This document shows positions 572-26,096 of a stretch of DNA of 64,000 nt, piece after piece; the first letter of the stretch is position 1; every line of letters starts with the position of its first letter. The notes under the pieces are model-generated. The model did no database searches, was not told the DNA's origin, and worked only from the letters and a program-made list of their open reading frames with translations. A program made the translations under genes and the position numbers. The stretch covers positions 1 to 64,000 of the forward strand of contig JAMDHS010000037.1 of assembly GCA_029717555.1 (NCBI GenBank), written 5' to 3'. The stretch is from Peribolospora baueri. Its lineage: Eukaryota.

Positions 572-852
572 GTCCCGCGCTTTTGGAAATCGGGCCGGGC
601 AGGCCAGGTCGGAATCCGTGGGGAGCTCGGACATTTCGGAGCAGAGTTGTCCCGAAAAGGAAAAGGGAAACTGGCGGCCCGAACAGCCCTGGGGGGCCTG
701 GCTCCCCAGCTCCCCGTAGGCGTTGTTCCTGCGACTCGCTGCTCACAGATTGCGGCTTCGGTCTGGCAAACGGACTCCCAAGCGCTTGCCTTTTTATGTG
801 ATGGGCTCTCGCCATTATGTGACGCTCTGTTCCGTCCGGACACCGTCTCATC

Positions 853-2265: not shown

Positions 2266-3292
2266 AGCTCTTGCCTTTTTGGGCGTACATAGGCTTTCAG
2301 ATATGTGTTCATGAAAGGTCGGTCTCACGCTACAGAGGCGCAGTTGCTGCAGTGCGCATGCGTCATTGAGTCAACGACGAAGAGAGCATAAGACATCACG
2401 AGCCTATTCGGGCTCAGGCCCGACAGCTCGGCGAAACGGTGCTAAATAACTGGTATGCAACTGGACACTGTTTAACAAGAGCGGTGAAAGAGGAGCAATA
2501 AAGGGACGAGCAGCCGGCGAGCAAGATACGTTGTGGGACGACTTGATTTTGCACGTATATCGCGAATTCCACATTCGTCGCATTCTTATGTTCCGTGAGC
2601 GAAGAGTATGACCTCGCCCATTCAGCCAAGTTTGGAAAATAAACGGAGCAGAGAACAACAACGCCAGCGCTCTCGAGCTGGAAAACAGCGACATTACGAT
2701 ATCTGCCGGGGTGAGATGCCGGGGAACGAAGTGTTACCTTGCTCGGTCTGCCTGCTATCTGCGTACGGAAGGCGGCATCCGCGCGAGCGCAGTTCGCCAA
2801 CCGTGATTCAGGCGGGACCGCTGCTGAGGTGGAGCGCTTGGACCGCAGGACCAGTACACAGCAAAGCGCGGACATCGTTCCATTACATTTCAAGCACCTC
2901 CGGCGTGACTGTTGATCGCGGTCCGTGTCATGCCCGCCAAATATGAAGGCTCGGAGTTTGCTCTTCACTTCGAGTAATCCTCTTACGCTTCCTCCGACTT
3001 ACTTTCGGCTGAACATCGCCTTGCCATATTTGGTAAACCTCGCTTCCTGCCGTCGACTCCGAAGACCCCGGACACCGACGCGACGCCCACTCACGGAGAA
3101 CGTAGATACGTAGATGCCTGGGACATCCCCGCGCGGGGCGTGATCGTACCGCTGGAGTGCAGCACCAAGAAGACAATCGATGAGTGAGCTTTTCCATTTC
3201 AGTCCGAGTCGCAGCCACCAACTCTCCCACCACTTGCTGAATCGCCAGGACAGCCCCTCCCTCGCCCACAGAAAGGTTCTCAAGTCGCAATC

Positions 3293-4319
3293 ATGCCCAA
3301 GCGCCTCTACATTACGTGAGTCCCTAGTCCTGTCGAGCCTGATTGTTCCCTGAAAATGGCTATCTGACCCGGCCGCTTCAAAACGCTCCTTCTGTCGGCA
3401 GTCGCCACGCTCAGGCGGAGCACAACGTCGCTGACGACTACTCGAGTGAGTGAATCGCCCGCCCGAGTTTGTTGGACTGGCCGGCGGATAGAAAGGCCGA
3501 AAAGCAGCTATAGCCTGTACTGAGGTTCCCGACAACCTGCCACCGACGTTATTTTTTCTCTTCGCAGTCCCCGACGCCCCTCTGACCAAGCTCGGACGCG
3601 AGCAAGCGGCTGAGCTACCCACTAAGACAGCTGCCATTCAGGGCGCCGGCGGTGCTCAGCTTCTCGTCACCTCCCCGCTCAAGCGCACCCTGCAGACGAC
3701 GCTGATAGGCTACCCGGACCTGATCAAGCGCCTGCGGGCAGAAGGAAAATTCCCCACCCCCATCGCCCTCCCCCAGCTGCAGGAGGCCAACGCCCACCCG
3801 TGCGATACGGGCTCGGACGCCGCGGTGCTCGAGGCGGACCCTGAATTCAAAGGCGTGGATTTCTCGCTCCTCAAGGAGAACCCCGACTGGACGAGCAAGA
3901 AAGGCTTCTGGGGATCGGACCTCGAGACGCTCCATGCGAGGGCGAAGTGGCTTAGGAGGTGGTTCCGCGATAGGCCCGAGGAGGACATTGTTATCGTTGC
4001 GCACGGTGAGATTCTCAGGTACATGGCGGGCTGGCACCTCGAGGTGAGTTGTAGGTGGTTGTGTGGTTGTGAAGTGGACCTCGAGCTTCGCTGGCCACTT
4101 TTGCCTCGTTTTTACCCTTCTTCGGTAGTTGACGCTCGTTTTTCTGCACATATATCCACCTCTTTGGACCTCCGCCAGCCTTGGAACAACGCAGAGGTGC
4201 GCCTGTTCACCTTCGTGTCGATGGAGGATGAGGAAGCGCTGCTCGAGCCGCTCGAGAAGGTCGCTGTTCTCGGCGGGCCCGAGCCGACGTCGTCCGAGAT
4301 CGGCCACTTCAAGAACTAG
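3293..4319 (+). CDS. Histidine phosphatase (phosphoglycerate mutase-like) family protein, multi-exon
   Basis: Spliced MPKRLYIT-RHAQAEHN (RHx motif), DAPLTKLG, VTSPLKRTLQT, LQEANAHPCDTGS, IVIVAHG, PWNNAEVR. Confidence 0.88.
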
Positions 4320-5138
4320 GCCATTTGATTTGATTTGATTTATGCCACGAGCGTCTCTGTCGCTTCCAAGAAACCGCCAAACCGTCCATTTCATATTCTA
4401 TTTCTCCGAGTCCGTCCTTCAGCATGAATGCCCGCATGGATAGTAGCTAGGCATCGACGGTATGGCAGGTTCAGACAAGCATGTAGATGGCATTAATTTA
4501 GTGGCATAATACAGTCATCGCAGCACCCTGATCTATCCAAGGAACGTCACATAACGCTTGGTCGCGAGTGTTTCGTATCTGTGTCTCGCCGTGGTCGCAT
4601 GGCCTGTTCCCATCAGTCGACGTTAAGATGAGCGAAGAGGCTGATATCGGTGCTGCTTGCACTGACCTAAGACGAGGGAAGAGGGATAGGACGGCTTTCA
4701 ACGAGCGGCTAGAAAGGCGCAAGTGGTTTGCACCGTACCAGAAGCAACAAGAGCTCGCGTAGAAAATGCACCTGTCCTTGGCAAGCCTGAAGGTCTGATT
4801 GCCTTCATAGTCCAAAATCCTCCGTCAAATTGATGTGCAACATGAGAGCAGCGCCGGATTTCCGACCGAGTGGCTGCGGCGGGGAGTCGGACGTGCCGAT
4901 AGCATCGAGCCTTTAATGGCAAGTGTCTTCTCCGCCCTGCGAACGCTACTGTAGGCCGATCGGCCGAACGGCGTCCAAGCGGATCATCTTAGGACGGGGC
5001 TTAGGAGCGCGCACCGACTTGAAGAAGCCGCAAAGACATTCACAGCTCGCCTCGCCCACGCCTCCTCCCACTGTGACACGAAACTTTCTTCCCTCCTCAG
5101 AATCAGCACTTGGCTGCGCTGTCCACACGTTCTTTGAA

Positions 5139-6959
5139 ATGCCTTCCAACGAGTCACGTAACAGCGCCTCTGGCAGTGCGCCTATTCGAGTGGGCCTTGT
5201 TGGAGCGTGAGTGGTCTTGACGTCGGAGGCGGTTTGAGCTGTCTAGAGGGCGGGAGAAGTTCTTCCACGCCGACTACTGACACCGAAACTCTGGACCATT
5301 GCTACCATCATCTTATCTTCGTATTTCCACCGTGCCTTTAGCGGCGAGGTGACACAAGTCATCCACCTGCCCACGCTGCTGCTCCTGCCTCACAATTATC
5401 AGGTCACGGCTATCTGTGACGTAAGCCAGGAGGCGATTGAGCATGTCCAGAAGAAGTTCAAGGTTCCCAAAGCTTTTCTTCAGAGGTGTGTTGTGTGCTT
5501 CCCTTTCCCTTTTCGAGACCTTCGGCTCCTCCCAAACGATATATTGATTCGATCGTCCCTCGGCCCATGCCGTGGTTGCACTTAAGCTCGGAGCTGGTTA
5601 AACAGGATGATGTGGATCTGGTCATGGTTGTTAACTCGGATGAGTATCATGCCAGCTGTGCAATTGAGGCTGCCGACGCCGGGAAGCATGTTTTCATCGA
5701 GAAGCCCATGGCCATGACACGCAAAGATGCCGAGGACATTGAGGCGGCGCGCCTTCGGAACAACGTACATATCTTTATCGGCTACATGCGTCGCTACGCA
5801 CCCGCGTTTGCGGTGTTCCGCAAGCTGGTCGAGGACTCCGGCCCCATCAGGCACTGCATCGTCAAAGACATCATCGGTCCCAAGTAAGTCAGTCGTGTTA
5901 CTTCTACCTGTGACGCGAGGAGGACATGCCTAATCTTGGCCTTCTTTCAATGGCGGACAGTTCCCACTTTGTCGGCCAGAGCGGCACATATCCGGAGAAG
6001 TTCTTCCGCGACATTCCCACTCACCTGGTCGAGGAGAGGGCCGCTCTGGCGCAGGCCATTGTCAAGACCGCTCTCGGGCCGAAGAAAGGAGCCTCCAAGA
6101 GGCTCAACGATGTCTATCGTCTGCTCGGCTCGCTCGGTTCGCACGACCTGAGCCTTATGCGGGAGACCCTTGGCGGTGTGCCTTCGCGTTGCCTCAGCGC
6201 CTTCGCCACCGACGACGGGCTCTTCATCACCGCTCAGCTTGAGTACGAGAACGGCCCAGCCCAGCAGAAGACCCACCCGACTGAGGAAGGTGCTCCGTCA
6301 AGCAGTACGTTCGTAGCCACCTACACGACTGGCATTCATAACGTGAGTGGCCCGAGAGGGAAAGGAACTAGGCTGATTTTCACTGACGTGTTCCATATTG
6401 CACACTTGTCTACGCGGCACCGCCAAAGGTTGGCGTGTTTGACGCATCCATCGAGGTCTTTTGCAGTGACCGCGTCCTTCGAATTGATGTGAGCCGAATC
6501 TCGCTGTTGGGCTTGAATGTTGTCGTGCCTGCTGATCTGAACGTCACTGGCTACTAACTTTTGCCTCACTAACTGCACCACTTCCCCTGGAATGTTTCCT
6601 CGCAGTACGACACTCCCTACGGTTAGTCGCTTGCTCGGCCCGCCTTATGCTGTCCGCTGGCTTGACCTTGCCGAGCGCACCTAGCACCTTGGCTTCTCAC
6701 ACATACCCTTTTATTTTCTTCACACCATTGTCTCCTCTCAGTCAAAGGCCTCCCCATCACCATCTCGGTGAAGGAGAACGACCTATCCAATCCAGGCTCG
6801 TTCAGCGAGAAGATTATCCGGCCGACCTACAAGGATGCTTATACGCAGCAGTTTGAGGACATATTTGCGGCCATCCGCGAGGGGCACGGTCTCAAGACAA
6901 CGCCAAAGGACGCTATGCAGGACCTCACCATTTTCGAGATGATCATGCAAAAGATCTAG
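5139..6959 (+). CDS. Gfo/Idh/MocA family oxidoreductase (inositol-2-dehydrogenase-like), multi-exon
   Basis: IRVGLVGA-GEVTQVIHLP, GKHVFIEKPMA, IGYMRRYAPAF, LGSLGSHDLS, YDTPYVKGLP. Confidence 0.88.
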
Positions 6960-7614
6960 GGGCCCCTGGTAGACTCCGTTGATTATCGAGACTTGTCCGT
7001 ATGTAGAAATAGACGCGGTGCGTGCCTGTCGGTGGATGGAGGATATCTTACATACTGATCCCATCATATGCTTCGGGCGCCGTGCCGAGGACGTCGCGGC
7101 ATTCAGAGAACTTTTCCCCGGTGGAGGTTGAAGGCGCGGTCGGCTGGAGACAGAAGAAAATGGAGACGGGACGTATGTTCATCGTTCAGATCGCGCGCTC
7201 TCACATTACAGCGGGACGGCGACCTGCGCTCTCGGTCGTTCCACGGATGATGTGCTCCGCACGCCGTCGGTGAAAAGGATATGAAGCTCGGAAACAGATG
7301 GACTTTTCGTGCTGAAAATCGCTAGGGTTGCAGCCGGTTGATCGACTGGCATATTCGTTTGAAGAGCTCTACGAAGATGCATGTTTGCCGTCCCACCCGC
7401 CTCGAGAGCGGTCACCGGCTGCGTTGCCCCTTTCCAGGTTCGCTATTACAGGTCCACTGGACCGGCGTGCGGACTATTTTACACCTTTAATGACATTACC
7501 GACAGGAAAGTTGCCAAGAGAAAAACGAATATAAATCATCGCTAAGAGTCCTCCTCAAAGAAGGATATTTGGATATCAACGGTGTGACTCGGACGCATAC
7601 GAAGTTGCTCTCCG

Positions 7615-10600
7615 CTACGGATCCTGGAAGATATCTCCAAATCGGCTGACATCGATACCGATTTCTTTCCAAAACGCGTCCTCCAGTTCAAGCTCAGGAA
7701 CGAGAGACGAATAGTCAAGCAGACTCGGGAACATGGGTTCGCCAATGTCTCCGCCACCGAGGCCAACAGCCCCATGACTGCCCGATGCATTCCGTCCTAC
7801 ACCTAAGCTCAACAGATAAGCGAGGCTGTCGGTATCGTCGATGGCGCTCACATGCTTTTGCGCTGCGAGTGGCTGCGTGGCGCGCAAGAAACCATCCTAT
7901 GATCGATGACCACCGGCAATAGCAGATCAGTAAAGACTCTGCTGATGACAGCACTTGAAAGGTACTCAAGCGGTTGCTCACCTTCATCGTTACTCCCAGG
8001 CGGTACTGCAAGACAAAGTTGTTGCAAAATTACGCGTGAGAGCAAGAGGTGGCAAAGGTGATTGTGAGCCAAGCTTTACAACAGGCATAAGGTGATTCTA
8101 CCTCTGACCTTAGCAGCAGCGGCCCACCACGTCCTGCCGAGGCTCTTTAGGAGCATGACAATACGATCATAACGAGAGAAAGCCTCTTCGGCCAAGCCCT
8201 TGGACTTTGAGTTAAACTCTTGGTAGCTGTCAAAGCAACGAGGCAAGACGTACGCAAAAAGAGGAAAAGTGCGATCGAACACCCATCAGTTGTCCAGTCA
8301 AGTTGCTACGTACAGCGAGGTAGCCAGCTACGATGTCTCGAACTGCGCATGGCTTCCACGTTGCCCAAAGGCGTAACGCAGAACTTTGCTTGCAGTGATG
8401 ATCGGTGAGAAACCACGTCAACAACACTGAAGCCGTTGCATGTGCTCACCTGATCAAAAGCGCGCTAACAGCGGCGAAAACGGTGAAAGGCCAAGAGAAT
8501 CCCAGCCCATGCTGTCTTTCTAACGCTTCGAGCGTGTCCGTGATGGTGGCGGCTGTTCGGCGAGCAATTGCCTGGCTATCCTCTCCGAGTGGACTGGCTC
8601 CCCTCGTCTGTGCGGCTGATGAAGAAGTTGGAGGAGCAAGGTTGACAAATGAACCAAATGTCGCGCCGCTGGCCTGAGACGGGCCGTGCTCTGCAAGGTT
8701 AATACCATTCAATGCATCAGAGGGGTTAGAATGTCTTCGTTGGACCTGCTCCTGCTGCTCTTGCTGTTGAACACGTAACGGATCTTGACATGATCGGGAC
8801 TGCTCGTGGATATCTGCAGAAGCAAAGACAGGGTTGGCAAGCGGTCCCCGCCGTGGAGCTGGGAGGTAGGGACGGTGTAACAGGAGGACGACAGCTTGGT
8901 AATGGAGATAAAGGATTACTGTCGAACGGCCGAACCGAGGCGCCCTTGAAAGACGTCAGCTCTTCCGCAAAGTCTCCGAAGCACGTAGGCAAGATGTAGG
9001 CACAGTTCGAATGTTAGCGGATATTGGCTGGGAAACGTACCGGTCCACATCTCCGCAGGATCGAGCTCGCCCCTCTGTTCCTGCAAATCAATAGGCCAGC
9101 GGAGTGGCCATTCGAGTTGTGAAGGCCATTGTTCGAGCGAAACTTCGATTCGACCCCTCATGTGTGATCTCTGCTGGGGTTCAGCGAGGGGACGTAAAGG
9201 GAAGTCGTTCTCCGGAGGAGGTGGGTAATAGTGACTTCGAACCGTGGTGTCGAGTATGCAGCCCAGCCGAAAATTGGCAGTGCAGACCGCATACACCAAT
9301 GGCGATTCGCCCTCGAAGTCCGATCGCTCTAAAGGCCGCAGTAGTGAAGCGTCATGTCCTTTGCTGTCTCGAACGAAGGCGATGAAGAGACGACGTCAGA
9401 GGAAAGTTCGGACAGCAAGATACAAAGGAACATTTGCTGTGTGTGCACATACATCAGAGCACTCGTCCCTTCAGTCACCGCAGTGAACCGATCGATGGTA
9501 ACAGCACAACACCAAATACGCCGCAGGAGGTTGACGCTTCGGGTGTTGACCGGCGCCTCGTCCGAGCGCGAACTTTCCACCGAGACAGACGGCGTCGTGA
9601 CAGACTGCGAATCGGATGGCGGAGGGCGATGCGCGCCTAACCCCTGCGCAAGACGAATAGCCGTGCTGAGGTGGCCGAGTGAGGTGTTCGAACCGTCCAG
9701 TCCCTCCCAGTGAAGGCCTGATGACCGAGGCCGAGCAGGGAGCACATTTCAAACCCGTCAGCGGTGGATCGTGCCACTAAGAAATGTCTCATGAACGGGC
9801 CTGCTCACTCATCAGCAAACCTGCCTGCACCAAAGCCAGCTTTTCGAATCCGAGTTCCGTGGCGTTGAAGAGAGCCCTGGCCTTCTTGTAATACTTGTCG
9901 GCGCTATTCCTAGACCCGCCGCTGGTGCCAACAATCTCTGGATGGTTAGAATAGCGGGCGCCCATGAGCAAGACAGCGTGAAGGAGAATCAAAGAGGGCA
10001 GCTTCGACCGATCCGGGTCTTGAAGGTCGCGCAAGAAACCTGGACCGTCTATGACGGGGTAAATAGGATGCACTCGGCACATGAAGCTATCGACGAGTGA
10101 CCAAAGCAGCGCGTCATGCGGCAAAGTGAAACATCCCTGCTTGCTGAGATATCGGAGCAAGTCGGGGTCATGCCCCGCCCGCAGGAACGCTCCGTGCCAA
10201 TCGAGAGCGCAGAGCTGTTGCGTCGGATAATCGGGTCGGGGTCGTGGAGAGGGACCAGGAGGCTTCACAATGGCCCGGTAGCCTGCCGTCCGGTTGATGA
10301 TGAGAGCTTTTTCCGACTCTTGCAGTAAAATGCTCAGCGGGTTAGTGCTGCCTATGTAATGGAACGAGGACGCCGTGGAGTGTAGGGCTGTGGAAGCTGA
10401 AGCTCGGCATGAGCGTTGGCGGAAGGAAGAACGATGTTTATTACCGGAAATGGTCAACTTACAAAGCTTCCCAGGATCCGGTTGGGAAAACATATCAGAA
10501 AGGTCCGTTTCGCCATCTGCCTGGCCGCGCTGGTGGGCGGGGTTCGACAGGGGTGGTGGGCGCTCCTGAAATTTATGGTCGCGAGGACTGTCATGACGAG

Positions 10601-11725
10601 GTGGATAATGCGTCTGCGCCGGAATTATCTTGCTAGATTCATCCTGATGCCACAATGGGCCATCGTCGGGCGCGGATGATAGCCCATCTGCATTCCTGTA
10701 ATATGCAGTGCCAGCCGGCGAAATAACTGAAGTGCCGAAGCGATCAACGGCCTGCGCATATTGCGGCTGTGGGGGAACAAGAGGAGGAGACCTGAAGGCA
10801 GCGTTGGCCAATGCGAAAAGACCGTCGTGGGCTGCTGTGTCATCTGCCACGGCTTGGCGAGGTGGAGAAGCCTGTGTCTGAGGCAAGCGCGTGACATTGC
10901 CGCCCTCAGCCGTTGGCATAGCTGGAGACGACAAATCTGTGCGATCCCCCTGAAGACTCTCTCTTGGCGAGGTCCGGGGCATTACGATGTACGGCCTACA
11001 TGAAGGAGCCGATAACACGAGACGCACAGACAGAACGGTACTACGTTTGAGAGGCGATGTCACGACGGTGAAAATCAACACCGAGTGCTGTCACGCACCG
11101 GCAAGGCGTGCCACTTTCGGCGCACTTGAGGCACTTGTTGACGTCGGAGGGCGTCCATCGACCTGAGTTTGTCGAGCGGTCCTCGTCTGCCTCGTTCCCT
11201 GATTGTCTGCCAGCGAACTGACATTTGAGCTTTACGAACAAATCAAGAAGTGAGATTCCTTTCGTAGTTTCTCATGCGATTGTGACGGCGGTATAGTCGT
11301 GGCGACGATAGATGGCATCGTAGGGTCGCTCCGGAGGCATACCTGCTCACCTTCTTCACCCTACAACGCTCACAAGCGGTTATCTTCCGTCTGGATCTCT
11401 CTCGGTCCTTGTCGGGGTCTGAGTTTGCCGACCTCCGGGAGCGCTGACGCCTCTGATCCGAGGCAAAAGTGATGAACATAAGGGAGAGCAGACGATCGTT
11501 GTCGGGCAGGACCACAGTGTACCTCGGGAACGCCTTTGACGCGCGATGCGGGGTTAAGAGATTGTTTGCTGTATGCGGAAGAACAATCCGGACGGGCCGG
11601 ACGAGCGACGGGCTCGGCCGATCATTGCTCTTTTTGCTACCTAGGGTTAGAACCGGGACAGTACCTTCTGAGCCTGCGCGCGAGTGGCTTTTAGCAGAGT
11701 TGAGCGATCTTGCTGATGAAACCAT
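7615..11725 (-). CDS. Zn(II)2Cys6 fungal-specific transcription factor, multi-exon (start uncertain)
   Basis: Spliced CERCRVKKLKC-RWTPSDVNK-CLKCAESGTPC cluster; middle homology region (FMCRVHPIYPVID, LVQAGLLMS, AIRLAQGLGAHR, LLRRIWCCAVTIDR); acidic C-terminus ending FGDIFQDP*. Confidence 0.85.
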
Positions 11726-12506
11726 CCCCTGATACAGGTAGGATGTTCAGCTATGAGCCTGTCTGTCAACTATCCTCGCGGTCACGAGCTCACATCAATG
11801 TGGTGATTTTCGCCCTATTGTACATGCCGTGCAATCCAGATCTCTGCGTACTCAGATGATTCCATCTGACATTGCCATATGTCGTGGAGGCAACACGACG
11901 ATAGTACCGCATCCGTGTCCACACAAGCTCTCGATGTCGAGCGATCCTCCTCCACCGAAGTAGGTCGCGTGTATGTACATGAGCCATGGGCAGGCTGTAT
12001 TCATGATTTCGAGAGCGTTCGGAGACAGGCAGATCGGAAAGAACGAGATTGACGGATGAGGACACGCGTGGGCGGCATGCGTTGCCAGATGAATCTGGAT
12101 CAGATAGATGGTCGCGGAACTCTCGCATCTCGATTTGCTACGGAAAGAATTGGCTTGAGATGAAATGAACTAAGTCCTAAGCTCCCCCTTTAAGATCGAC
12201 AAGGCATCGCATAGCTTTTATGAGCGGCATTTCTGCCGCTCGCGATACCTCGGGTTGCTCGGCCTGGCAGCTGCCGGCGTACTTTTCAGAAAAACCCCTC
12301 AGATGTCTAGCCCAACGCCACGTGGTGTACCCTTGGGCACCTTCATGACGTAGCCCACCCATTATGCCCGCGAGATGTGGGACGACATCGGTGCGAAATT
12401 GGTCAAGACACGTTGGGTGGGCTAGTTTCTCTGCCACACGCGTGAAGGGCTGTTTGGGAATCTCTGGTTGAATACAATGACAAAAAAGTACGACACAGCA
12501 GCTCGT

Positions 12507-14659
12507 CTACGTGGACAATCCAGACGACATCTTCTCGGCCTGGCTGTCAGCCCCGGTTTCGCAGCTCTCTTCCAGGTGCTGTACCTCTGGCCTTTGCTTT
12601 GCTAGGCCGATGCGGGCCGCCACCTGGTCGATCCGGGAACGGTACTCGCGCTCCTCGTCCCACGTCCACCAGCTCTTGGTAGAGAAGAGGGCATCAATGC
12701 TGGGATGAGAGGAAAGGAGAAAAGGATGAGCGTTTCGCTCCTGCATCAAGAAGGGCGGTAGGTGACTCACCTCTCTAAGGTCCTTCGAGAAGTCTCTGGG
12801 TAAATGCAGTAGATGATCGGTACCCACGCAAAATTGAGCGCACCGAAGAGGTAGAAAGTCTTCTCGCTGATGGAAGACAACTGCAGTTCCAACGCGAGAG
12901 GACAGTACGGGCCGTCAGTACTCTCCACCACTTTCTGAACAGGTTGGCGGTGCGAGAGGCCTACCATGACTGGGTTCAAAAGGGTGGCCATGCCGCATCC
13001 AACCGCCCAGCCGCTGACGCCGAACGCGTTGCCTTTGGCTCGCAGTGACGCTGGCCAGAGCTCAGTAGGATACTAAAAAGCGGGTGCGAAGCTTTATAGT
13101 CAGAGTTGATCAGCAAGGTTGCTAAATCGCCTTAATAAACTCACGATAAATGGCACCATCAACCAGGAGCAAGAGAATACGAAAGTGTAGATAAAGAGCA
13201 TGCTAGCGCTGGCAGCACCAAGCTGGGATGCCTTGGCAGGGTTAGATACAAGCGCCTGGTCGAGGCCACCTTGGATGAACATCATGAAGCCCTGGATGAC
13301 CGCGCCGCCCATGAGAAGCTTCCGTCGGCCGACGCGATCCACAAGCTGCGCGGCAACGAATGTGCCGACGATGCCAATCGTGTTGCCGAGTGCGGACAGC
13401 CAGGCGGACTTGGTGGAGCCGTAGCCTGCCTTGGAGTACAGGGTTGGAGAATAGACGGTCACGGCCCCGATACCGTCCCACTGACACATAATCTGCAGGA
13501 AGAATGCCAGGAAGGCTCGGCGTCCGAGGTGCGCTCCGGAAGTCGCCTCGCTATTTCGACCCGACACGATCTGAAGGAAGCTCGGCTGAGTCTCCTTCTC
13601 GTCCTTGACGGCGCTCTTGACCTCATCAAGCTCAGCCTGAACCTCATCTCCGGTGCCTCGGAGAGCGAAGAAGACCTCCTGCGCCTCGTCATCTCGCCCA
13701 GCTTCAACGAGGTATCTCGGGCTCTCCGGCAGGAGATTGATGAACGCCGCGAGCATAAGCGCCGGGATGATCTGGAAAGCGAGTGGGAACCGCCATCGTA
13801 CCTGCGATGTACCCGCTTCCGTATCGGTGTAGCTGAGCCCAAAAGAGAGCCAGTAGGCCGTAGCGATACCGATATAGTTGGCCAGGAAGACGAGAGAGAT
13901 AAGGCTACCGCGGTCGTGGGCAGTAGCTACCTCTGCAGACCAAACTGGGACAATAGCGGTGAGGTGACCGCAACCGATGCCGCTGATGACGCGCGCACAG
14001 ATCATCATATTGCTATTCTGCGCACCCGCCTGGAGCGCTCCGCCAAGAATGCTCCAGAGCGAGCCGACAAAGACACCCCTGATACGGCCGAGCTTATCGG
14101 CAATGTAGCCGCCGATAAAGCAGCCAAAGATGACACCAAGCTATGGCAGAATCGGGTTTGTCGAGTGAACGCATGTGCCATTGATGTGTACGCGGACGTG
14201 CCACACTCACGTAATAGACCGATACGATCCCACCTTGCTTGGTGGTGTTCGTCACTTCGCCGTTCGAGCCGATACCGACCGTCGTCTGGTAATGGGGTGA
14301 CCCGTTGACGCCACCTTCACGCACAAGTTTTAAGCAAAACCACTGAGAGAATATTCTGAGAGAAATGAGGCAGCCACCTTGCAAACTCACCCATTACTCC
14401 TTGATCATAGCCTGCATGAGAAGAGCACGTTAGCACCGACCCAGCAAGGCGAAGCGAGCAAAAAAAACACCAGTGGGATATACCTTCGAAGAAAATGGCC
14501 ATGACTGAGAAGACATTCATGAGGACCATCAACTGGCTGCATAACAAAGCAAGCAAGAAGGGTAAGCATCACAACACCTAGGGAAGTCATCTACCTCAGG
14601 GTCCGCGAGGCTCACGTAGGCGAAAGCCTCTGCCAGAACTTCTTTGTTGCAGCTGTCAT
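12507..14659 (-). CDS. MFS sugar porter family transporter, multi-exon
   Basis: FFEG-YDQGVMG, ARVISGIG, VPVWSAE, WRFPLAFQ, LPESPRYL, VDRVGRRKLL, YPTELWP, YPETSRRTLE. Confidence 0.93.
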
Positions 14660-15165
14660 GCCGGGCAATTAGCTCGTCGAATGCCCGGCGCGGAGATATT
14701 CAGGCGGACCGCGAGCAGGCAGCAGGGCGCAGCTGCGAGAAGAAATGCGACGAGCGCAAGACTGTCACGAGGCCGGCTTGAGGTGGCGACTGCCAGGGTC
14801 GGATGCTGGAGTAGAGTACGGAGGATATGCGCCAGTATGAGAGCGTTGAACTCGGTGAACACCGACGGTTGCCTCCTAGTGACAAGGAGGTCTCTACAGC
14901 TTGCAGGCGTCCGGCTGAGCGAGCTATTGGTTCCAACAGCGCCCTGTGGACATGTCCTTTTATGCTCCAATCGCGTTCTCTCTGGAACGGTCCAGGAGAG
15001 TTGTATATTGCAGCAAAGCGGGACCAATGTAGGTCACAATACAGACCGTTGACGGACGACGACACGGAGCCTGGGCCCAGGGACCCGTTGTCTCGGTGAG
15101 ATCCTTTCTACAGCACTACTACTACCTTGTACTCTGGTGTTTACAGCCGCAGCTGACCGGCTAAA

Positions 15166-15183
15166 CCCCGCGCGGAACCCCGC
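15166..15183. promoter_or_regulatory. Two CCCCGC boxes (CreA/Mig1-like SYGGRG) in the divergent MFS/kinase promoter
   Basis: CCCCGC at 15166-15171 and 15178-15183. The motif is short and function is only inferred. Confidence 0.3.
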
Positions 15184-15551
15184 GGAGCCCCGAGGGAGCC
15201 GTATCACTTCGGCCGAGATTGATTACCAGAAATGGAAGGACAGAGATTGTCTACGAAATATGGCGAGCAGATGTTCGGCCGAAGGCCAAGTCAGAGGAAA
15301 CGCACGGACCCGTATAGACACAGAAGCTGCCTTTTCGAGCTTCACACTCCGGTCACTTCGTCCCCAGTTGTCCCCCACCATACCAGAGGCGGAATCTGTT
15401 GGGTGCCATTTTCAGGGCACGATGCTGATGCTTTTTCGTCCAAATAAAAGGCGAGTCCTTCACATACGTAGCGGTCGACGAACACCGAACACCGTCTTCG
15501 ACTCCGGCCTCATCCCACTTCAATCAAACATTTCTTCGAGAGCTTCCCATC

Positions 15552-17621
15552 ATGTCCGTCCAGACCAAGCCTCTCGACATCAAGGTCATTGGCATGAACA
15601 GCGGTGAGCTCGTGGCTGATGTGGTCATCATTACGCTCTAGCCGGCCTGTTCTCACTCGTCTTCGTCTCAAATATTCCCATTCCCTCGCAGGCACCTCCA
15701 TGGTGAGTTGTGGCTGGCGGACCTCCGTTCCGGCATGGATAACTGCTGAAGAGCAATGGAGTCATCAGGAACTGTTGAGCTCACATGAAGCCCGCCGCTT
15801 TTCAGGATGGTGTCGATTGTGCTCATCTCCACTTTAGGCAAGAATCACCCGACAGCCCGTTGCACATGAAGTTGCTCAACTATGCTGAAATCCCTCTTCC
15901 GGCATGGATCAAGAAGGTGAGTGCGGTGACATGACGCCTGTTCGCAAAAGAGTACCAGTTCGTGATGGCTGCATCCAGTCGACCGAGTGATGACATTCAG
16001 TCACCAATCTGTATGAGCAGCCGCTTCTCAAGATGATCAAGTACAACACGACCACGCCAGAAGAACTTTGTCAGGTCAACTTTCAGCTTGGGGAGGTGTT
16101 CGCCGACGCGGTTCTCCAATTTTGCAAAGATAAGAATATTGATTTGAAGAAGGAGGTGGACCTGATCGGTAATCATGGGCAGACGATTTGGCTTTTAAGG
16201 TGAGCAGGCCGCGGCGCCTACTTGCTGAGATAGAAAGAGATGGTGCTCGCGTGAATTGGCTTTTTAACTGAGTGAGCTCATCTACCTTCCCGTTCGGACC
16301 CATCCAACAGCATGCCTGAAAAGGGCCAGACCAAAAGCGCACTCACCATGGCAGAGCCAGCTGTCATGGCTGCAAAGCTTGGAAAGACGATTACCAACGA
16401 TTTCCGACAGGCGGAACAGGCTGTGGGCAGACAGGGCGCGCCTCTGGCCGCATTCATCGATGCTTTGGCTCTCGAGCATGACCACTTGAATCGGGCGAGT
16501 CAGAACATTGGCGGCATCGGAAACGTCGCGTTCGTACCCAAGAAGACCGAAGGTGGAATCGACCAGGTCTTTGATTTCGATAGTGAGCGGCTTGTGGACG
16601 ATGATTCTGTTGCCTTGACTGAAGAGCAGACTAGCTGACTGGCGAGCACATCGTTCAGCTGGCCCGGGCAACGTTTTCATTGATGCGGCAGTCAGGCACT
16701 TTACAGACGGGGCCAAGGAGTACGACAAGGACGGAGAGATTGGTGCAAAAGGCAAGGTCAACCAGGCCATGGTCGATGAATTTCTAAAGCACCCATATTT
16801 TTCCGTGAGTGTACGCAGGCCGTAAACAGAGGATTGACGCCCTGGCTGATTTTACAACCACGTCAACGTCCATTGGCATGCGATGGTCGACCAATCGTGC
16901 GGACAGACGCCTCCACCGAAGACCACCGGACGGGAGCTGTTCGGAGACGACGTGGCACTCCAGCTCATCGAAAAGGGCCTTGCACAAGGCATGTCTCCGG
17001 AAGACTGCGTAGCCACCATCACCCGAATCACGGCCCAGTCCATTGTAGACCATTACAAGCGATATAGTCCCGGTGAAGGCAAAGACCTGGACGAGATCTA
17101 CATGTGCGGAGGCGGCGCAAAAAATAAGAACATGTGAGATCAATCATATGCCCACGTCGCAACCCATGAGGTTAGCATAGGACGACCACTAATCCTTGTC
17201 ATCCAATCCCGACTGACAGTACAAAGTACATTCAAGAGTCTTTTCCTCAGGCTAGGCTCACCAATCTTGACGAGTGCGGCATTCCTGCGGACGCCAAAGA
17301 GGTGCGCGGACAACTCGATAGAGAAACACAAATGACAGCAGGAGCGCGGGAACCTTTTCGAAGACTGATTTGTCGCAATCTCCTACTCTCTCCCATCAGG
17401 CTATCTCGTTTGGCTGGATGGGTTTGGACACCCTCCTCGGACGCTCCTTGCTCATCCCTCAAAGGGTCGAGACGCAAACTCCATGCGTGCCGGGCAAAAT
17501 CACCCCGGGCAGCAATTACCACGAGCTCATGCAGCAAGTCGTTGACTTTTCACGGGATACTAAGGGATGGCGCGGAACGAATATCCTGCCCCCCGTACGA
17601 AAGCTCGTTATAGATCCATGA
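15552..17621 (+). CDS. LGK: Levoglucosan kinase / anhydro-N-acetylmuramic acid kinase (AnmK) family, multi-exon
   Basis: [94 protein letters not shown]. These motifs closely follow fungal levoglucosan kinase as I recall it. Confidence 0.9.
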
Positions 17622-18902
17622 GACATTAACAGTGGAACAGAGGGTACGTGTAAGGGCCGGAACAGAACTGCAATCGAGTGGATTCCTGTCGTCCCCATTC
17701 TCCATCTCGGTCTCCGATCATCGACCCTGGAACTAGTGTGTCAGTCCTGTTTGTTCATCATCCCGCATAGTATGAGTCATGTGAGACGAGGCAAAATCCG
17801 TGCCATTTCACCATTCCTGTCAACCCTCAACTCCTCTTACCAGCTGTTGACCCGTCCTGGTCTATGTGACTTTGACAGAGATGAAGGAAACCATCACAGG
17901 CACACAATGGCAGCGTATTGAACAACCCCGTTCCATCCCGAATTTGTTGAGTCTGGTTTTAGATAAACGTTATGCCTCACTGTGCTTATTTTCACTGCTA
18001 AGGAAAACTAAATTGCAATGCTGCGCTGGCTTTCGTAGGGATGATCGAGTGCGGTGCGTCCATGCGCCTATACGGGTTCGAAAAGGTTGAATACGTTCGG
18101 TGTCACCTTCACAAGCCCTGTCCAGCAAGATAAGCGTTAAAGCTTCCCTCACAAAGCTTGAATTCCTGGATGTGGAAGTGTTTGTGAAGGCCAACCCCTT
18201 CACCCACCTCTCCAACGATGGTCTCGGAACCCGAACCTTCGAGAAGAGCCTTAACGCTTATCAATACATCTCCTGGTCCTCCTACCATCCAGTAGCTGTC
18301 AAATCGGCCTTTATCAAAGCCGAACTGACGCGGTAATCCGTAACGCGTCAGAACTGGCAGACTACTTATCGGTACGAGATCTCTTCTTCTAGAGACTCCG
18401 AGCACGGGGTTATCCCCCTCGATATCTCAGGAAGGTCTTCCTCAGTCTCAATTACTACGCTCTCCGCGAGCGAGCCCTTTCAGACGCACACCCGGCTGAA
18501 AGAGAAACGAGCGACGCTACGAAACCGCCACCGCGACTCGTGTTCAAAAACCTTTTACAACCCCATCTGGGATGGAGTCGATTTGCGTCCCGTCTGGGAC
18601 CTTTACCTCTCCCAATGGGTTGATCTCGGGTTTGTCCCTCAGGGCACTCGGATCATCAATTGTAAAAGGAAGACACGTAGCCTCGGTGACGTCTTCAACA
18701 CGTCAAACAAGAGATCTATCCAGGGGAGTCGCGTTAAACGCGTGCAGTTGGATTATGACCCTAATCCTAATGAACTAGCCACGCGACTCACCGCAGGTAC
18801 GTCACCTGATCAATCACGTGACACGGCCCTCACGTCCATCCCGACGTGATCCGGTATTTCCACGGTGAAATCTTCGCGACCGCCACAAGAGAGCTGATCG
18901 TT

Positions 18903-18951
18903 GCTGCCTGACGAGCCCTCGGGCGAAACAGCAAAAGCTTTCTGTAGCAGC
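18903..18951 (+). ncRNA. Type I hammerhead ribozyme
   Basis: GCTGC-CTGACGA-GCC(CTCG)GGC-GAAA-CAG(CAAAAGCTTT)CTG-TA-GCAGC: complete catalytic core with three Watson-Crick stems; predicted cleavage after GUA at 18946. Confidence 0.9.
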
Positions 18952-19025
18952 TTGCTCTTTCTTCTCGTGCGGCTTCGTTTTTTGTTCACAGCAACTCCAT
19001 GGCCCCCCCCAGTTGACGACAAAAA

Positions 19026-19041
19026 CCCTAGCCCTAACCCT
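19026..19041 (+). repeat. Degenerate telomere-like repeat CCCTAG-CCCTAA-CCCT at the 3' end of the PLE
   Basis: Follows an A5 run about 75 nt downstream of the hammerhead; CCCTAATCCTAA also occurs at 18759-18770. Confidence 0.55.
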
Positions 19042-19321
19042 CTCCCCGCTCTCCGTTCCGTCATCGCTCCACGTCGGCCTCGTGGATTCACAGAACAGAA
19101 AAAAGATCGTGCAATGCTGTCGAAGACAGATGGAGGGCTTCCTGTGAACCACGCGAGACTTAAAGAGATCGGCTTGTGACGGAAGGTTGAAGGGACAGTA
19201 CGAGTTCTCGACGAAGGTGCATGTTGAAATACAGGAGACAGTGCGATCGCAGGAGGATGATAAATAAAAGGAAGTGGCGCGCTTGACCGATCGAGCACCT
19301 CGTACCTCTCTCATCAAGTCG

Positions 19322-22300
19322 TCAGTGGGCTGCACCCAGGGAATCCAAGTCAAGCTGAAAGAGCTCGGCCCAGTAGGCTAGTGCGTGCTCTGGTGTTTGG
19401 GAGAGTGGTGGTGCGTCTTGTCCAGAAGGGAAAAGCATGGGCCAAGAAGAATCCAGCATGATGCTGGTGCGGGTCGGGTCACCTACCGGTTGAGCAGCGA
19501 TGCGAGGGCCGCTCCCTGCGCTCCCCCCGTCACCGACACCCGCCCTAACGCTACAATCCATAGAGAAGGGAGGATCGGCGTGCCCTTGAGAATAAGGACC
19601 AACGTCGAAAGCCGGGAGGCCCGACGAGATGCCAGGGCCGCATTGCCATGCTGCAGGGCTCGAGAGGTCTACGCCAGCCGAGAAGGGTTGAGGCAAAGGG
19701 CGGATCGATGCCAGGCCCGCGGAGGTGCTGGGTGGGCTGTTACATTGCTCTGCCGAGCTATAAGGCGGAGGTTGAGTCGCAGCTTGCGGATGGGAGCGAG
19801 CAGCCCTAGCACCCAAATGTTCAGCAAAGCGTGAAAATATGAATGGGAGATCTCAGGCATGTTTTTTGAGTAAGAGAACGCGTGGCTGAACTCAGGGCGG
19901 CTGGTCGTTCACTTACCTAGCAAGCTTTTCGAGAACATGAAGTCCCCCTTTGGCCGCCTTAAGTCCTGTCCATCTCTCCGGGATCCGCTCAAATAGGTGG
20001 GCAATAGTGGAGAGATCTTCAAGAGCACTTTCAGCGAGCCGGCTAGACGGCTGAAGGAAGATGATATAAGCCCCCATGACCTGCGAATGAATGGCACGGA
20101 AAAGAAATACAAGGTCGATATCCATCCAGTTCGAGACCCTTCGTTTGATGAGACTTGCAAGGCAGCCGACGAAGTGACTCCGTAGCCACTCACAGCTACG
20201 TGGAAAGTGAAGAAGCATATCTGCCAAAACATGCCGGCACGGACAGAACCTAGCAGATTATGCATAGTTTGCTGTGCTACGGCCACAACCCGCAGTGCCT
20301 CTGCGCAGATCCTCACGCTGGTCTCATTGAGCTGATGGGTACCGGATGAACCTGGAGCAGACGTAAGGTGGGAGCGGTGGAGCAATAGAAGGGTATGATG
20401 CACTTCAATGGCAAGGTTGCATGACTGATGAAAGAGGCGCAGGCTCTTGCTCGTCCCGCTTGCCCCGCTCGTCCGGGTAGCGCCATTAGTCCGTCCTGAT
20501 CGTTCTTTGTCTGGGCCCAAAGGCTCGACATCGACCCGGAACTGAGCTGGCAAGCCGGCGTACCAAGACTGCAGCCTCTCGGTGAAGACATTGACCCGCT
20601 CCTCGCTCCACCCTCGGCCTTGAGTCTCGTCCAGCAGTTGCCGGGCGAACTCGGAGTACTGGCATTGGAGCTCTCGATAGGTCGTCGATGAGGGACAAGT
20701 AAAGCTTGAGATGCGGCAGCTGAAGCTGGTGACAGCAAGGGGTCGACCGAAGATGCCTGAAAGCAGGACGTCCAGGTGAACGATTGCCCACCTGTCCACG
20801 GATACCAGAGAGGTTAAGGTGTGTGCGACCGCGTGAACCAGAATGATGGCGAGCTTGAGAACAGCAGGCTTATGCCATCCTGCTTACCAAAGTCGACGAC
20901 GTATGTCGGCCTCAACGGGGGGGCAGTCAGTGCGAAGATTGTCCGGCTCCACGTGCAGACCGATGGATTGCGCCTGACGCGCGATACTTCCAAGCAAAGG
21001 CCTAATGGAAGAGAGAGATAAAGTCAGCAACGTACAGAAGGCCTGGTGGTAGACCAAATCCGTCCAAGAGCAACTGGGTTGAGCCCTTGCCGCGCCGGCC
21101 TCACCAGAAGCTACTTGCGCGCTCAGTGTTCATCAAGTAGCATCCTACCATTGGGAACGGGGCCAAAGCGAGTAATGTAAAAACTGGATATGCCGTGGAA
21201 TGATGCTTCGCGCTCTTCCCTGTCACTCACCAATGAGCAGCTGAGCATGAATTGTTTGCAGCGTAGGGGAACTGAGAAAGGAGCAGAGACGGAGCGATTG
21301 GTACGTGGCGGACACTGAAGGAGAAAACAAGAAGATGGTGAGGGCGTGCACAGACGACCGCAGCCGGCGTCCACGTCCCGCAAAGTTCGGTAGAGCAGAA
21401 GCGAGCGAACCTGCCTGGCCAGAGGTCAACTCACGGTACAGGTCGGCCTCGAAGTTCACGGGGTCTTCGGCTAGGACCTTGCTGCTGGAGGGAGCGGGAG
21501 CGTCTCGGGCGTTGGCATCATTTGCAGTACGAAAATTCAACAGATCGTTGGCCACCAAACCTTCGTCTCCCGCAACCCTCAAGCCTATGGCAGTATTGTC
21601 GAGGTCGCAGTTGTTTCCCAAGGCACAAATCATGAGGAAGAGAGCAAGCCACGGAAGAGAAACGCGAGACCTTTCCTCGTCGGATCGCCTAAAAAATTCG
21701 CGCGCATTTTGAATGACGCTAGGGATACCGAGTGCGGGGCAGAGAGTTGCAAAATGTTGGGTGAAAGCGTGAACAAGGCTGGAAGCAGGTGGCAGGCGGG
21801 AAATTAGGTTAGAGTCAGGCATTGAAAAGAACTTTGGATTTTCTCGGCTCTTTTTGGCTGACTCACCTTGCCGCTTCGTCGGGCTTAGGGAGTTTCGGCA
21901 GAATCTCATCGATGAAGGCTGGACCGGACGACCAAATCGTGACGAACGGAAAAGTCTCGGCTTCTGAATACAGAAGCCCAGTGACTGCAGTCTGGACGTC
22001 ACGAGTAAGAGCATTGACATCGTCCGCCGTGTTTTTGCTCGCGTTGTCGGGACTATTCTCAGCGCTTCCATGTTCAGGACTGACACTATTAGGGGCGACC
22101 TTTTGAGAAACAGACATCATTGGAAGAGGAATGGACAGGAGCAAAATCAGTGAGACGGAAAGTCGACACACAGACTCGCAATTTCGAAGGTAGCATCCTA
22201 ACAGCTCTTTCTGCACGACCGCCCAATGACTAACCTCTCGGAGGACTGCGCTGGCTGAGACCCCCTCGCCGTAATAGATATGCTGACCGTTGAGATTGCA

Positions 22301-23364
22301 AGGCGCATCAGCGCTGGGCCCGTTGGGCTGAGATGCGTCCGCTTGGGAGGAGGATTGGCAGGACCAGCCGGCTTGCAGGTCAGATGAGATGTTCGACAGT
22401 GGGCGGACATCAGGGTGCAAAGGCGGGCTTGCGGCGCAGCACATGCTCAGCCGCCGGTGATCTGAGCGGTTCAACGTATCGCCCGTCCACTCTGGCTGAA
22501 CGCCGGCTGGTTCGTTGCCAGCAGCGCGGGGAGAACGGCGTGGACTAGACTTATCGCCTTCACGAGTAGTAACAGCTGCCACTGTAGTAGAGTTGCAAGG
22601 GCTCTGCATCATAGCCTCGTCCTCAGGTCCTCTCCATTCCGCCAGCATCCTTAGAGCGGACGCTGCATCTATATCTTCGCCGCGCCCTTCCGCCCGTCCT
22701 AGAGAACTCCTACACCTCCCTGTAGCCATGCCAATAACGGTGCTCGAGGCGGCCCGAAGACTTTCATCTTGCACTTGTTGGGTCTCTCTGCCAGATCCCT
22801 TATCTGTACCAGTGATCGGAACGTTCGGGCTTGACAGGGGCGGACTCGACGGGCTCGCTGCTTGGTGGTACTTCCGCAGTTCGCGGGCAAGCTCTTCGAC
22901 TCTGCGGCGTGAGACGGCCAGTTCTGACTGCAGCCTGCGAACGTCGTAATGCCGTAGGAGCGGCGCGCATGAAGTGGTCAGTGAAACTGGCGCATCACGG
23001 GCAACATGTTACCTCCCTCCTGTACGTTGCCACCCCAGGCCCCTGCCCAGGCTTCCCTCTCTCACCTTCCTAGTTCTGAAGGTTCGCACTCGCTCCATTC
23101 ATCTTCCTCATCCGATTGCTGCTCCCTCTGCTGGTTCTGCTCCTGCTGTTGCTGCTGGCTGTTCTGGCGGACTGACTTGTCTTGCAGCTTGGCATCGTAG
23201 TGACACTCACTCTCCGCACCTGCCTTACTGCAACGTCCGCAACTCGGCCGTGCGCGATCGCAGGCTCGTTTGCCTCGATGGCAAGGTATGCAGGACTTTG
23301 GTATGCGCACCCTCTTCCTCTTCTCTGGGATTCTGGTGGGAGGAGGTTCGGCGTTGCTGGCCAT
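19322..23364 (-). CDS. Zn(II)2Cys6 fungal-specific transcription factor, multi-exon
   Basis: RVRIPKSCIPCHRGKRACDRARPSCGRCSKAGAESECHY; middle homology region (WAIVHLDVLLSGIFGRP, LLLLHRSHL); C-terminus YWAELFQLDLDSLGAAH*. Confidence 0.9.
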
Positions 23365-24246
23365 ATTTGAGCGATGTGATCGATAGATGTGGAGAAGACG
23401 GGGTTGGTGATGGCAGCAGCCAGAATGCGGAGATGTGCGTGGAGCTAAGCTCGCGTGCGGGGGCCTCTCTTCGGCTATAGCGGGGCTTGGCGGAAATTCC
23501 CGTCCCCAGAATTGTCCTCTCCCGCGCCCTGCACGTTATCCGAAATTAATTGTCCTTTCGGATAACTACAGGGGTCACACTAGGAAGGGTTCATAGCACA
23601 AGACTGCCTAGGGAAGAGAGGAGGGCACGAAAAGGAGCCTGATAGAAAGCAGGGCATGGAATGGAGTCCGGCAGGACTCGCAAGAACTTCGCAACACGGA
23701 CAGGATTCTACAATATTCCTTTGCCAACAAGGTCAGCGTGCGGTGTCACGTCACTTTTGCTCAGGGAACGCGCGGCCCGCGCTTAACACCGCAAACGCCA
23801 CGCACCCATGGCGCAAGTACAGTACGGAGCTGACCTCCATGTCGCTAACTCCGCATTGCCCATGAGCTCGGCTTTGCCTGATCTGCTCGGCACCCAAGTA
23901 AGGTAGAGTCAGAGTCAGAGTGTTGTGAAGTCATATATCTCAACACTAAGCCTCGGTCCCCTCGCTCTGGGACGTTACACCTAAATCCGTGAGTTGGAGG
24001 CTAGAACCAAACCAGCAAACGGTGACTTCTCACGATGCGCGCTCTAACCTTCTGACGTGAAGATATACCACAAAGGTTGGCCTGACTGCAATTTTAGATT
24101 CCGCAGGTCAAATGCAATGGACCAGCATGGACCTGCCCTTCTACTTTCGCTCCTAATCGTAGCCTTTCTTACAGCTTACTAGAGAGAATGCTCGATTGAA
24201 AAAGTCATGCGCGCATGTGGCGTGCAGGGACGACCTCAGTGCGCGT

Positions 24247-25920
24247 TTACAACCTGCCGGTCTGCGCTGCTTGAACGGCATGAGCTGCTGCCTCCTTGAA
24301 ATCGTCGTAAGTCGCAATGGGCAGCTTGGAATCTTGCAACTGTCACATCAAGTCCAGAACACGCCCAGTCAGCGGATATGCGTACCGTTCTCATGTTTTC
24401 GGGAGGCGACCGGCGCGTACCAATTTCTTGGCCTCCTCTGCTCCCGTTCCCTTCATCCGCGCCACGATGGGCTGCTTCATGTTGTTCTCGCGCACAGCCT
24501 CAATGATGCCCTGGGCCACAACACTGGCGAGGCATTACGAGGAGTGGTGATAAGCTAATGCTTCCATGCGATATCAGCGCTGCATTGTTGCGACTCACTT
24601 CGTGCGAGTGATTCCGCCGAAAGCTGCGCAGAGATTCGATCAGATAGTTAGACAATTGAGCAACGGCGCAGCGCCGACGCAGCAGGGGCAACGCACTGTT
24701 GATGAAAATCGCCTTCACATCAGGGTCTCGATTGAGCGTTTCCACCGCCAGCCTGGCGTTTGCCTTCGTTGCTCCTCCTCCGCCATCTAAGAAATTGGCG
24801 GACTGGAGTAAAGATACAGGTACCGGAGAATCAGCCCGAAAGAAGAGGGTGAGGAAGAGATGTTAGGGAGCTCACCTTGCCGCCTACTAGGCCTAGGCCG
24901 TCCATTGTTGCCATTGCATTGCCTGCACCATAACCGAAGCAGCCCACATTTCCGCCTGTTTAGACCAATAATTGGTCGAAGATGAGGAAAGCGGGATCAG
25001 AGTCTAGAAGGAAAAGTTCATGGTGCCACTATTGTGCGGGACTGCATAATAGTACTGCGCAACACGCACGAGACGCTTACCGTTGTTCAGCTTGATGTAA
25101 AAAAGGCCACCATCTTCGGCCAGGGCAGCGTTTGCGTTGCGGTTTCGCTTGTCGTAAATCTCCTTCAAGTTGGGCTGGCGATGCAGGGCAAAAGTGTCGA
25201 ACTCAAGGTGTGGGTCCAGCCTATGCGGATAGAAAGTGACATCGGCATCGGCATTGCATGCAGGGCAGACGTGGATAAAATCAAAGACAGCACTCACACC
25301 CTCACTTTTCCATCGTCAATGGAAAGCTTAAAGGTAAACCAAAGTCCCTCTCGCTCGTCAAAAATACGCCAAATGCTCTGAAGCACCTGTGCCGCCTTCC
25401 ACGTGAGGGGCTCAGGAAACGAGAGTCCGGCGAGCTGGGCCGTACGGATGAGGAGATCGAACGCCTGGTCGACGCTGAGCCCATTTCTGAGGTTGATCGG
25501 CAGTTGAATCACCGCCTTTGGCTCCTCCTCTTGGAGACGCATGATCCCCACAGAGCCCGGTCCCAGCTCATCATCCATCAATGAGGGCAATTTGGATGTC
25601 ACGGTACCGAGAAGCGAAGGACCGAAGTGACGGCGGACGCTGTCGTTGGCATCGGTGGGCAGAGCTTGAGGGCGGCGATCGGCATGCAAAAGAATGGAAA
25701 GAGACTTGGCTGTATTATGTGTTGTGCCGCCCTGGTCTGTGTGGTGAGCTGGTACGGGGGCCCCTGTCGATCTCAGAAATTCAATTGCAGAGCCTGCTCG
25801 TAGGTGTACTTGCCTCTTGGACGGCTGCCCTTGTCGCGTCAACGAAACAGCAGAAACTGCTGGTCGGGCGCCTGAGCAGTGCGTTGGCGAGCGAACAAAA
25901 TTAGCGAAGGTGGCGAGCAT
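24247..25920 (-). CDS. Succinyl-CoA ligase beta-subunit-like protein with truncated ATP-grasp domain; putative mitochondrial presequence
   Basis: C-terminal ligase domain GNVGCFGYGAGNAMATMD, ANFLDGGGGAT, DPDVKAIFINTFGGITRTN, PIVARMKGTGAEEAKKL. The N-terminal exon lacks KxQ..GGRGK. Confidence 0.85.
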
Positions 25921-26096
25921 CGGTGTGGATGTATGAAGTCAGACAAGCTATCATGTAGGCTCATGATTGCTTTTGTAAACACTCGCTCCGCAACACCCCG
26001 CTGCCGGTGGCGGTGGAGTTAAGCAACGCGAGCATGGTCACTGATTTGGACGGGGTCTGCGGTCGGCGATAAGTGACGCGCCCCTCGACGCCGGGA

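Follow-up and report, generated by a model that had tools for sequence, protein, structure and literature searches.

The 49-nt motif at positions 18903 to 18951 of the window, by which we mean the whole 64,000-nt stretch of Peribolospora baueri DNA analysed here, is confirmed at the sequence level as a type I hammerhead ribozyme by its coordinates, by shuffled controls, and by sister copies and related families. We consider it very probable that it belongs to the 3' terminus of a telomere-type (Coprina-like) Penelope element without an endonuclease, and that the window holds a stray, dead copy, most likely without a role at the locus. The features on which the argument depends are as follows.

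15553..17621, + strand: AnmK/levoglucosan-kinase-like gene with introns, upstream of the element; stop codon 17619-17621, start codon as read from the sequence
18127..18849, + strand: 3' remnant of a Penelope-like RT ORF, 5'-truncated after the catalytic core and without a GIY-YIG domain
Near 18335, 18390 and near 18546: lesions of the RT ORF (1-nt deletion, nonsense codon and 1-nt insertion, respectively)
18847-18849, + strand: stop codon of the RT ORF; the ribozyme begins 53 nt later
18888..18962, + strand: distal stem I, with a purine-rich 5' arm, a pyrimidine-rich 3' arm and an internal loop; a private 4-nt deletion at 18887 has made it shorter
18891-94 and 18954-57: stem I extension pairing, GAGC/GCUC
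18903..18951, + strand: type I hammerhead ribozyme
18903-07 and 18947-51: stem I, 5 bp, GCUGC/GCAGC
18908-14: catalytic core box CUGACGA
18915-24: stem II, 3 bp, GCC/GGC with loop CUCG
18925-28: core box GAAA
18929-31 and 18942-44: stem III, 3 bp, CAG/CUG, with a 10-nt loop containing the palindromic AAAGCUUU
18945-46: UA, with cleavage predicted after 18946
18946..18946, + strand: private change at the cleavage position, GUA here and GUC in all nine other copies that cover the site
19021..19040, + strand: element 3' end, an A-run followed by reverse-complement telomeric repeats (CCCTAG CCCTAA) that continue into the CCCT of the flank
19322..23361, - strand: Zn2Cys6 transcription-factor (TF) gene, downstream and convergent; 5' end approximate

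Identification of the hammerhead motif

A type I descriptor, in which CUGANGA, GAAA and UH surround three helices and the fold is open at stem I, has the 18903-18951 site as its sole match when both strands of the window are scanned. Dinucleotide-shuffled windows gave a match in 3 of 300 cases at the loose setting and in 0 of 300 at two stricter settings. Each of the stems, loops, core boxes and distal stem I pairings proposed in the sequence-only reading was recovered in place by the descriptor and a coordinate check. The word "intact" in that reading holds for the core and stems, which fit the consensus, but not for the cleavage position, with its private GUC-to-GUA change at 18946, nor for distal stem I, which is 4 nt shorter. 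Positions in the hammerhead, such as A9 and C17, are numbered by the usual convention.

A search with Rfam hammerhead models, which had been suggested as a check, was run over positions 14000-26000 and had no hammerhead hit at E<=1. Rfam also returns no hammerhead match for L002, a sister copy without changes, and the failure therefore limits membership in an Rfam family rather than the fold. Weak hammerhead-clan matches (E 0.6-9.4) were obtained for four of nine related loci, and none of the nine reached the gathering score of the models. The motif resembles Hammerhead_1 (RF00163), Hammerhead_3 (RF00008) and HH9 (RF02275) in its catalytic core but differs from them in these scores. Free folding yields a minimum-energy structure other than the hammerhead, with z-scores of about 0, which speaks neither for nor against the motif; a loose genome-wide hammerhead pattern (3365 matches vs 1938 for the control) is uninformative.

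Three other variants in the same genome (C157, C197 and C273) have the same core and stem III ends and place CCCTAA 64-77 nt from the hammerhead, and a fourth (C637) is a damaged hammerhead that follows an RT remnant. Near C273 there is RT sequence, an inverted fragment about 400 nt upstream; RT sequence was not found in the stretches around C157 and C197. Among metagenome RT loci, a relaxed descriptor finds a hammerhead in five of 11 (0.035 expected per shuffled set), although this count is post hoc: the first descriptor found three of 11, and stem I was relaxed to 2 bp after motifs had been seen by eye. One further hammerhead, at L089, is recovered if a 1-bp stem III is permitted, and L088 and L091 bear the same hammerhead motif. 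CCCTA lies 62-81 nt past the cut in four metagenome relatives, GUA is the natural triplet in two related elements (L085 and L086), and the exact family pattern matched none of the metagenome stretches. The core is invariant across nine aligned motifs. Pairing is kept while the closing pairs of stem II (GCC/GGC, GUC/GAC, GUU/GAC, GCA/UGC) and stem III (CAG/CUG, CGG/CCG, AAG/CUU) vary, and the loop III palindrome is retained in C273, weak in C157 and missing in C197. The C273 hammerhead stands at one end of an imperfect inverted repeat of ~250 nt (81%; L028:1498-1746).

A Coprina-like Penelope element

Searching the genome (22.7 Mb) with positions 18000-19100 gave 17 element matches, the window included, and homology between the copies spans 18127 to about 19036; no full-length intact copy was found among them. 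The longest sister copies encode a Penelope-type RT (Pfam RVT_1) that is 35-41% identical to 12 aligned homologues; the nearest named homologues come from Phenoliferia and Microbotryum. A GIY-YIG domain is present in only two of 42 longer RT homologues; the Pfam GIY-YIG domain is absent from the ORF pieces of copies C12 and C641, and the GIY-YIG part of P0032 has no match among the 10 loci tested. The Penelope-like origin proposed earlier is accordingly borne out by the RT remnant upstream, the RVT_1 domain of the family, and the 3' hammerhead with its telomeric tail, the CCCTA of which lies 79 nt from the predicted cut in the window copy. The ORF is broken, as had been claimed, by the 5' truncation, two 1-nt indels and the nonsense codon. 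Within its 3' part, the telomere-like sequence CCCTAATCCTA occupies positions 18759-18769 of the window, and copies C117 and C104 start inside it, at 18763.

PMC8557442 and PMC6431247 describe elements of the Athena and Coprina clades that lack an endonuclease and carry a hammerhead beside reverse-complement telomeric repeats. The present family is like them, so far as these descriptions go, in its RT ORF without GIY-YIG, its 3' hammerhead with a short reverse-complement telomeric stretch behind it, its 5'-truncated copies, and the sister copies that lie near telomere tracts. A telomere tract lies 4.1 kb from sister copy C95, whose 5' end points outward, and C37 is near a telomere but reversed. 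Unlike Coprina and Athena elements, the window copy is intergenic, the nearest telomeric tract in the window being 17.6 kb away, and several other copies are also internal. On the features tested (RT, no GIY-YIG, hammerhead plus tail), the element appears Coprina-like.

In the active element, a self-cleaving or end-shaping fold would precede the CCCUAA tail by 60-85 nt, and the tail would anneal to a G-rich 3' DNA end and prime reverse transcription, a process known from the literature whose steps we infer here. One 5'-truncated copy would then have been patched into a probable DNA break in the space that separates two convergent genes, with priming through CCCT microhomology. This copy would have been dead on arrival, with drift of about 2.6% to follow, and most likely has had no role at the locus.

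Decay of the ribozyme and of the rest of the element

The alignment sets the window copy against 13 further matches out of 16, the three not used being C61 (73% identical), C33 and a 58-nt piece of C1. These copies do not all stem from separate insertions, four of them sharing one 3' flank and three another. Nine copies, the window copy among them, span the full ribozyme, which is unchanged in three (C641, C117 and C104) and damaged in the core or stems in five. The damage affects a stem III pair and loop II in C95, two stem I pairs in C37 and core A9 in C1, and consists of an 11-nt deletion in C12 and the loss of 2 nt from GAAA in C113. Private changes in all copies together amount to 9 of 457 sites in the ribozyme and 105 of 4737 in the ORF (Fisher p=0.87), so that the conservation relative to the ORF for which the sequence-only reading had proposed to look shows no excess. 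The flanking UTR, where the count is inflated by homopolymer length changes, has 40 of 1400 (p=0.40 against the ribozyme). In the window copy alone, one of 49 ribozyme sites is privately changed, at the cut site itself, compared with 16 of 723 in the ORF; the earlier contrast between a broken ORF and an unbroken ribozyme leaves no signal in these numbers. Nor do they reveal the conservation above neutral surroundings that is expected of a domesticated ribozyme, although this one-copy test has low power, with ~1.1 changes expected in 49 nt, and a selected copy would look much alike. By these counts, the ribozyme is decaying no more slowly than the remainder of the element copy. As a source of the changes, RIP was rejected, given that C>T/G>A substitutions (76) are not dominant over A>G/T>C (72).

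When all differences are counted, the ribozyme (9 of 457) does fall below the UTR (95 of 1400; p=3e-5), because none of its differences is common to several copies, whereas the ORF has 57 that are shared and the UTR 55. This lack of shared differences points to selection on the ribozyme in the replicating lineage and to none after insertion. The window copy has drifted by about 2.6% since it was inserted. The descriptor survives 58 of 147 possible single substitutions (39%), the GUC-to-GUA change of the window copy being one of these, and the probability that a copy of this age carries no descriptor-breaking substitution is 0.44-0.52 for substitutions alone, with indels left out. The fallback offered earlier, that a small 49-nt target escaped mutation, matches the copy comparison, with a chance of escape of ~0.5; the ribozyme would still fit the consensus because the target is small and not because the host maintains it.

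Predicted activity of the window copy

GUA is one of the two fastest cleavage triplets according to PMC3138052, and the window ribozyme may well have kept its activity despite the GUC-to-GUA change. With this change, however, GUUGCUGC (18900-07) and GUAGCAGC (18944-51) can form a helix shifted by three bases, so that the cleavage dinucleotide is buried in folding models, and it is conceivable, if on balance doubtful, that slippage of stem I has already left the copy catalytically dead or nearly so. In-register pairing of stem I is computed at 0.01 for the window copy vs 0.81-0.84 for a sister over 55 nt, and at 0.00 vs 0.53-0.55 over 94 nt, whereas the bare 49 nt form stem I in the correct register. 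The slipped duplex (8 bp) is favoured at -11.3 vs -8.4 kcal/mol, the minimum-energy structure of 18891-18957 is the slipped fold, and distal stem I has been shortened by the private deletion as well, but the gap that separates it from the active fold is only 0.6-1.2 kcal/mol worse than in the sister. Folds of 229 nt give a mixed order, the gap being 8.5 in the window copy against 10.9 and 5.5 in two sisters, and the folding model omits Mg2+ and core tertiary contacts and assigns a tiny active fraction even to unchanged copies, so the predicted slippage is a hint. A catalytically dead ribozyme would in any case be a sub-case of the explanation that we prefer, a stray dead element copy, and not an alternative to it.

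As a monomer hairpin, helix III is computed to be unstable (+1.8 kcal/mol), whereas the duplex that the palindrome can form is stable (-8.9 kcal/mol). Cleavage could possibly depend on dimers formed through palindromic loop III, and in these models the window ribozyme may still cut in vitro, best as a dimer. PMC4209133 and PMC6765202 (citing Lunse et al.) describe dimer-cleaving hammerheads with a palindromic helix III in Penelope-like elements (PLEs). The present motif is like these, as described there, in its palindromic loop III and predicted intermolecular helix of 8 bp + 2 x 3 bp at -8.9 kcal/mol, but unlike them (2-4 nt loop, mostly animal, tandem) in having a 10-nt loop and occurring as a lone copy. 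For fungal PLEs, PMC4209133 describes type I hammerheads, among which the Serpula lacrymans motif cuts as a monomer at 0.16 per min in 1 mM Mg. Compared by description, the Serpula motif and the window motif both occur in a fungal PLE, have the type I fold, a full core and short stems I and II, and show no obvious canonical loop contact; the fungal motifs in that account have a large helix III, whereas helix III here consists of 3 bp and a palindromic loop.

The copies themselves bear on whether cleavage accompanies insertion. Of the 11 copies that have a 3' end, ten extend across the cut site and not one begins at 18947, from which we infer that the RNAs that were reverse-copied were uncut or rejoined. 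In its account of a lizard Penelope element, PMC11167929 reports a hammerhead that cut only with the element's protein, mutants that still inserted, and an absence of RNA-seq reads ending at the cut site. Three very short 3'-end insertions (L012:1501, C1; L015, C472; L016:226, C195) begin at 18903, where stem I starts, at 18936, which is within loop III, and at 18958, which is 11 nt past the cut. These starts may mark stalls of reverse transcription on the ribozyme fold.

Neighbouring genes and alternative explanations

The upstream gene matches Pfam AnmK (E 3e-13), and for its last exon the match is to levoglucosan kinase 4zxz (E 8.5e-11). The downstream gene matches Zn_clus (E 5.5e-7), and its exon at 19912-20883 matches a Thecaphora TF; its last exon, with a stop near 19322, was inferred from the open frame alone and was not confirmed by homology comparison. 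Positions 823-17621 hold genes for a GFO/IDH/MocA oxidoreductase, a histidine phosphatase, a fungal TF and a sugar transporter, together with the levoglucosan-kinase-like gene, and are possibly a sugar-use cluster for anhydro-sugar catabolism.

The sequence-only reading had suggested that the ribozyme insulates two gene clusters by cutting kinase read-through RNA. The orientations that it gave are correct, the ribozyme having the same sense as the upstream kinase gene (+) and pointing towards the 3' end of the TF gene (-), but we found no positive evidence for insulation. If the host had co-opted the ribozyme, cleavage of read-through RNA at 18946 would limit antisense RNA over the convergent TF gene; the strand and the site between convergent genes are right for this, the core is intact, and GUA is a fast triplet (PMC3138052). 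The cut would nevertheless fall 1325 nt past the kinase stop, and 505 nt of native flank precede the element, which is room for normal polyadenylation; the TF mRNA, from the opposite strand, carries the complement and so could not be cut. In the yeast reporters described in PMC3241649, cleavage alone did not terminate Pol II and the hammerhead 5'-OH was a poor Rat1 substrate, so that collision of polymerases would remain, although cleavage could still shorten the life of read-through RNA and limit dsRNA without stopping the polymerase. Several results given above also tell against co-option: the ribozyme lacks excess conservation, the folding model prefers the slipped, inactive stem I in this copy, and the cut site is present in 10 of the 11 copies that have a 3' end, as expected of uncut RNAs. 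Moreover, helix III is unstable in the monomer (+1.8 vs -8.9 kcal/mol for the duplex), and dimerisation is unlikely for the scarce read-through RNA of a lone copy. We therefore regard co-option as highly improbable. If true, it would make this a domesticated Penelope ribozyme that acts on fungal host gene expression as a boundary between host genes; a limited literature search returned no report of a retroelement ribozyme in such a role, which is weak evidence of absence.

A boundary of another kind would result if the element marked a former chromosome end, attached at a telomere-like end just past the TF gene, with the 17-kb sugar-kinase cluster later joined to its truncated 5' end; the clusters would then be parted by a scar and not, as proposed, by an insulator. 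The element's 5' end faces the contig start, as in telomeric sister C95, and a CCCTAA tract of nearly 3 units lies at 554-570. The 3' flank is purine-poor and CCCT-rich, there is no clear target-site duplication, and copy C12 has unrelated sequences on either side. With the element removed, however, the two stops are ~790 nt apart, an ordinary convergent gap, and the telomeric stretch at the 3' junction is just 4 nt longer than the element's own tail. We think this history unlikely, and prefer the insertion of a stray copy that was dead on arrival. A look-alike shared by the two flanks (9 of 12 positions) is too diverged for the age of the copy to be called a target-site duplication, and positions 17620-18130 have no match in the loci compared. 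At 222-337, near the CCCTAA tract, the window contains a piece of an LTR-like repeat (86% over 124 nt to L031), and a former chromosome end may lie at or close to the start of the window.

Significance and flanks of sister copies

That fungal Penelope elements without an endonuclease carry a 3' hammerhead has been known since 2014, so the window finding in itself matters little. What is gained is a dated series of copies in which constraint on the ribozyme is limited to the replicating element, a collection of naturally occurring versions, differing in the triplet (GUC or GUA) and in whether loop III is palindromic, that could serve in vitro studies, and a sign that most inserted copies derive from uncut RNA, which bears on the function of the ribozyme in these elements.

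The same sequence, which by eye is part of another repeat with LTR-retrotransposon-like features, the repeat that has a piece at 222-337 of the window, directly follows the CCCT tail in C12, C1 and C472 (L004, L012 and L015), and a related one does so in C37 (L006). Either the insertion was amplified together with that repeat or the site is preferred. Copies C95, C113, C117 and C104 (L003, L005, L010 and L011) have one common 3' flank and three different 5' ends, and three of them lead into a region of 129-bp tandem repeats; their shared flank is probably a subtelomeric duplication.

A multi-copy fungal RNA-repair gene adjoins hammerhead remnants in three places. Its 2H phosphoesterase, phosphatase, P-loop kinase and RNA ligase are enzymes that would heal hammerhead ends. 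As a part of the element this gene was rejected, the join at C12 being a short microhomology and other copies of the gene continuing into a ligase domain instead of the element, and the C12 junction looks accidental. The gene lies at the 5' junction of C12 (L031:5250-6944) and, as rearranged pieces, at that of C113 (L005/L073), and it is convergent with C197, ~50 nt from the tail (L067:143-1966).
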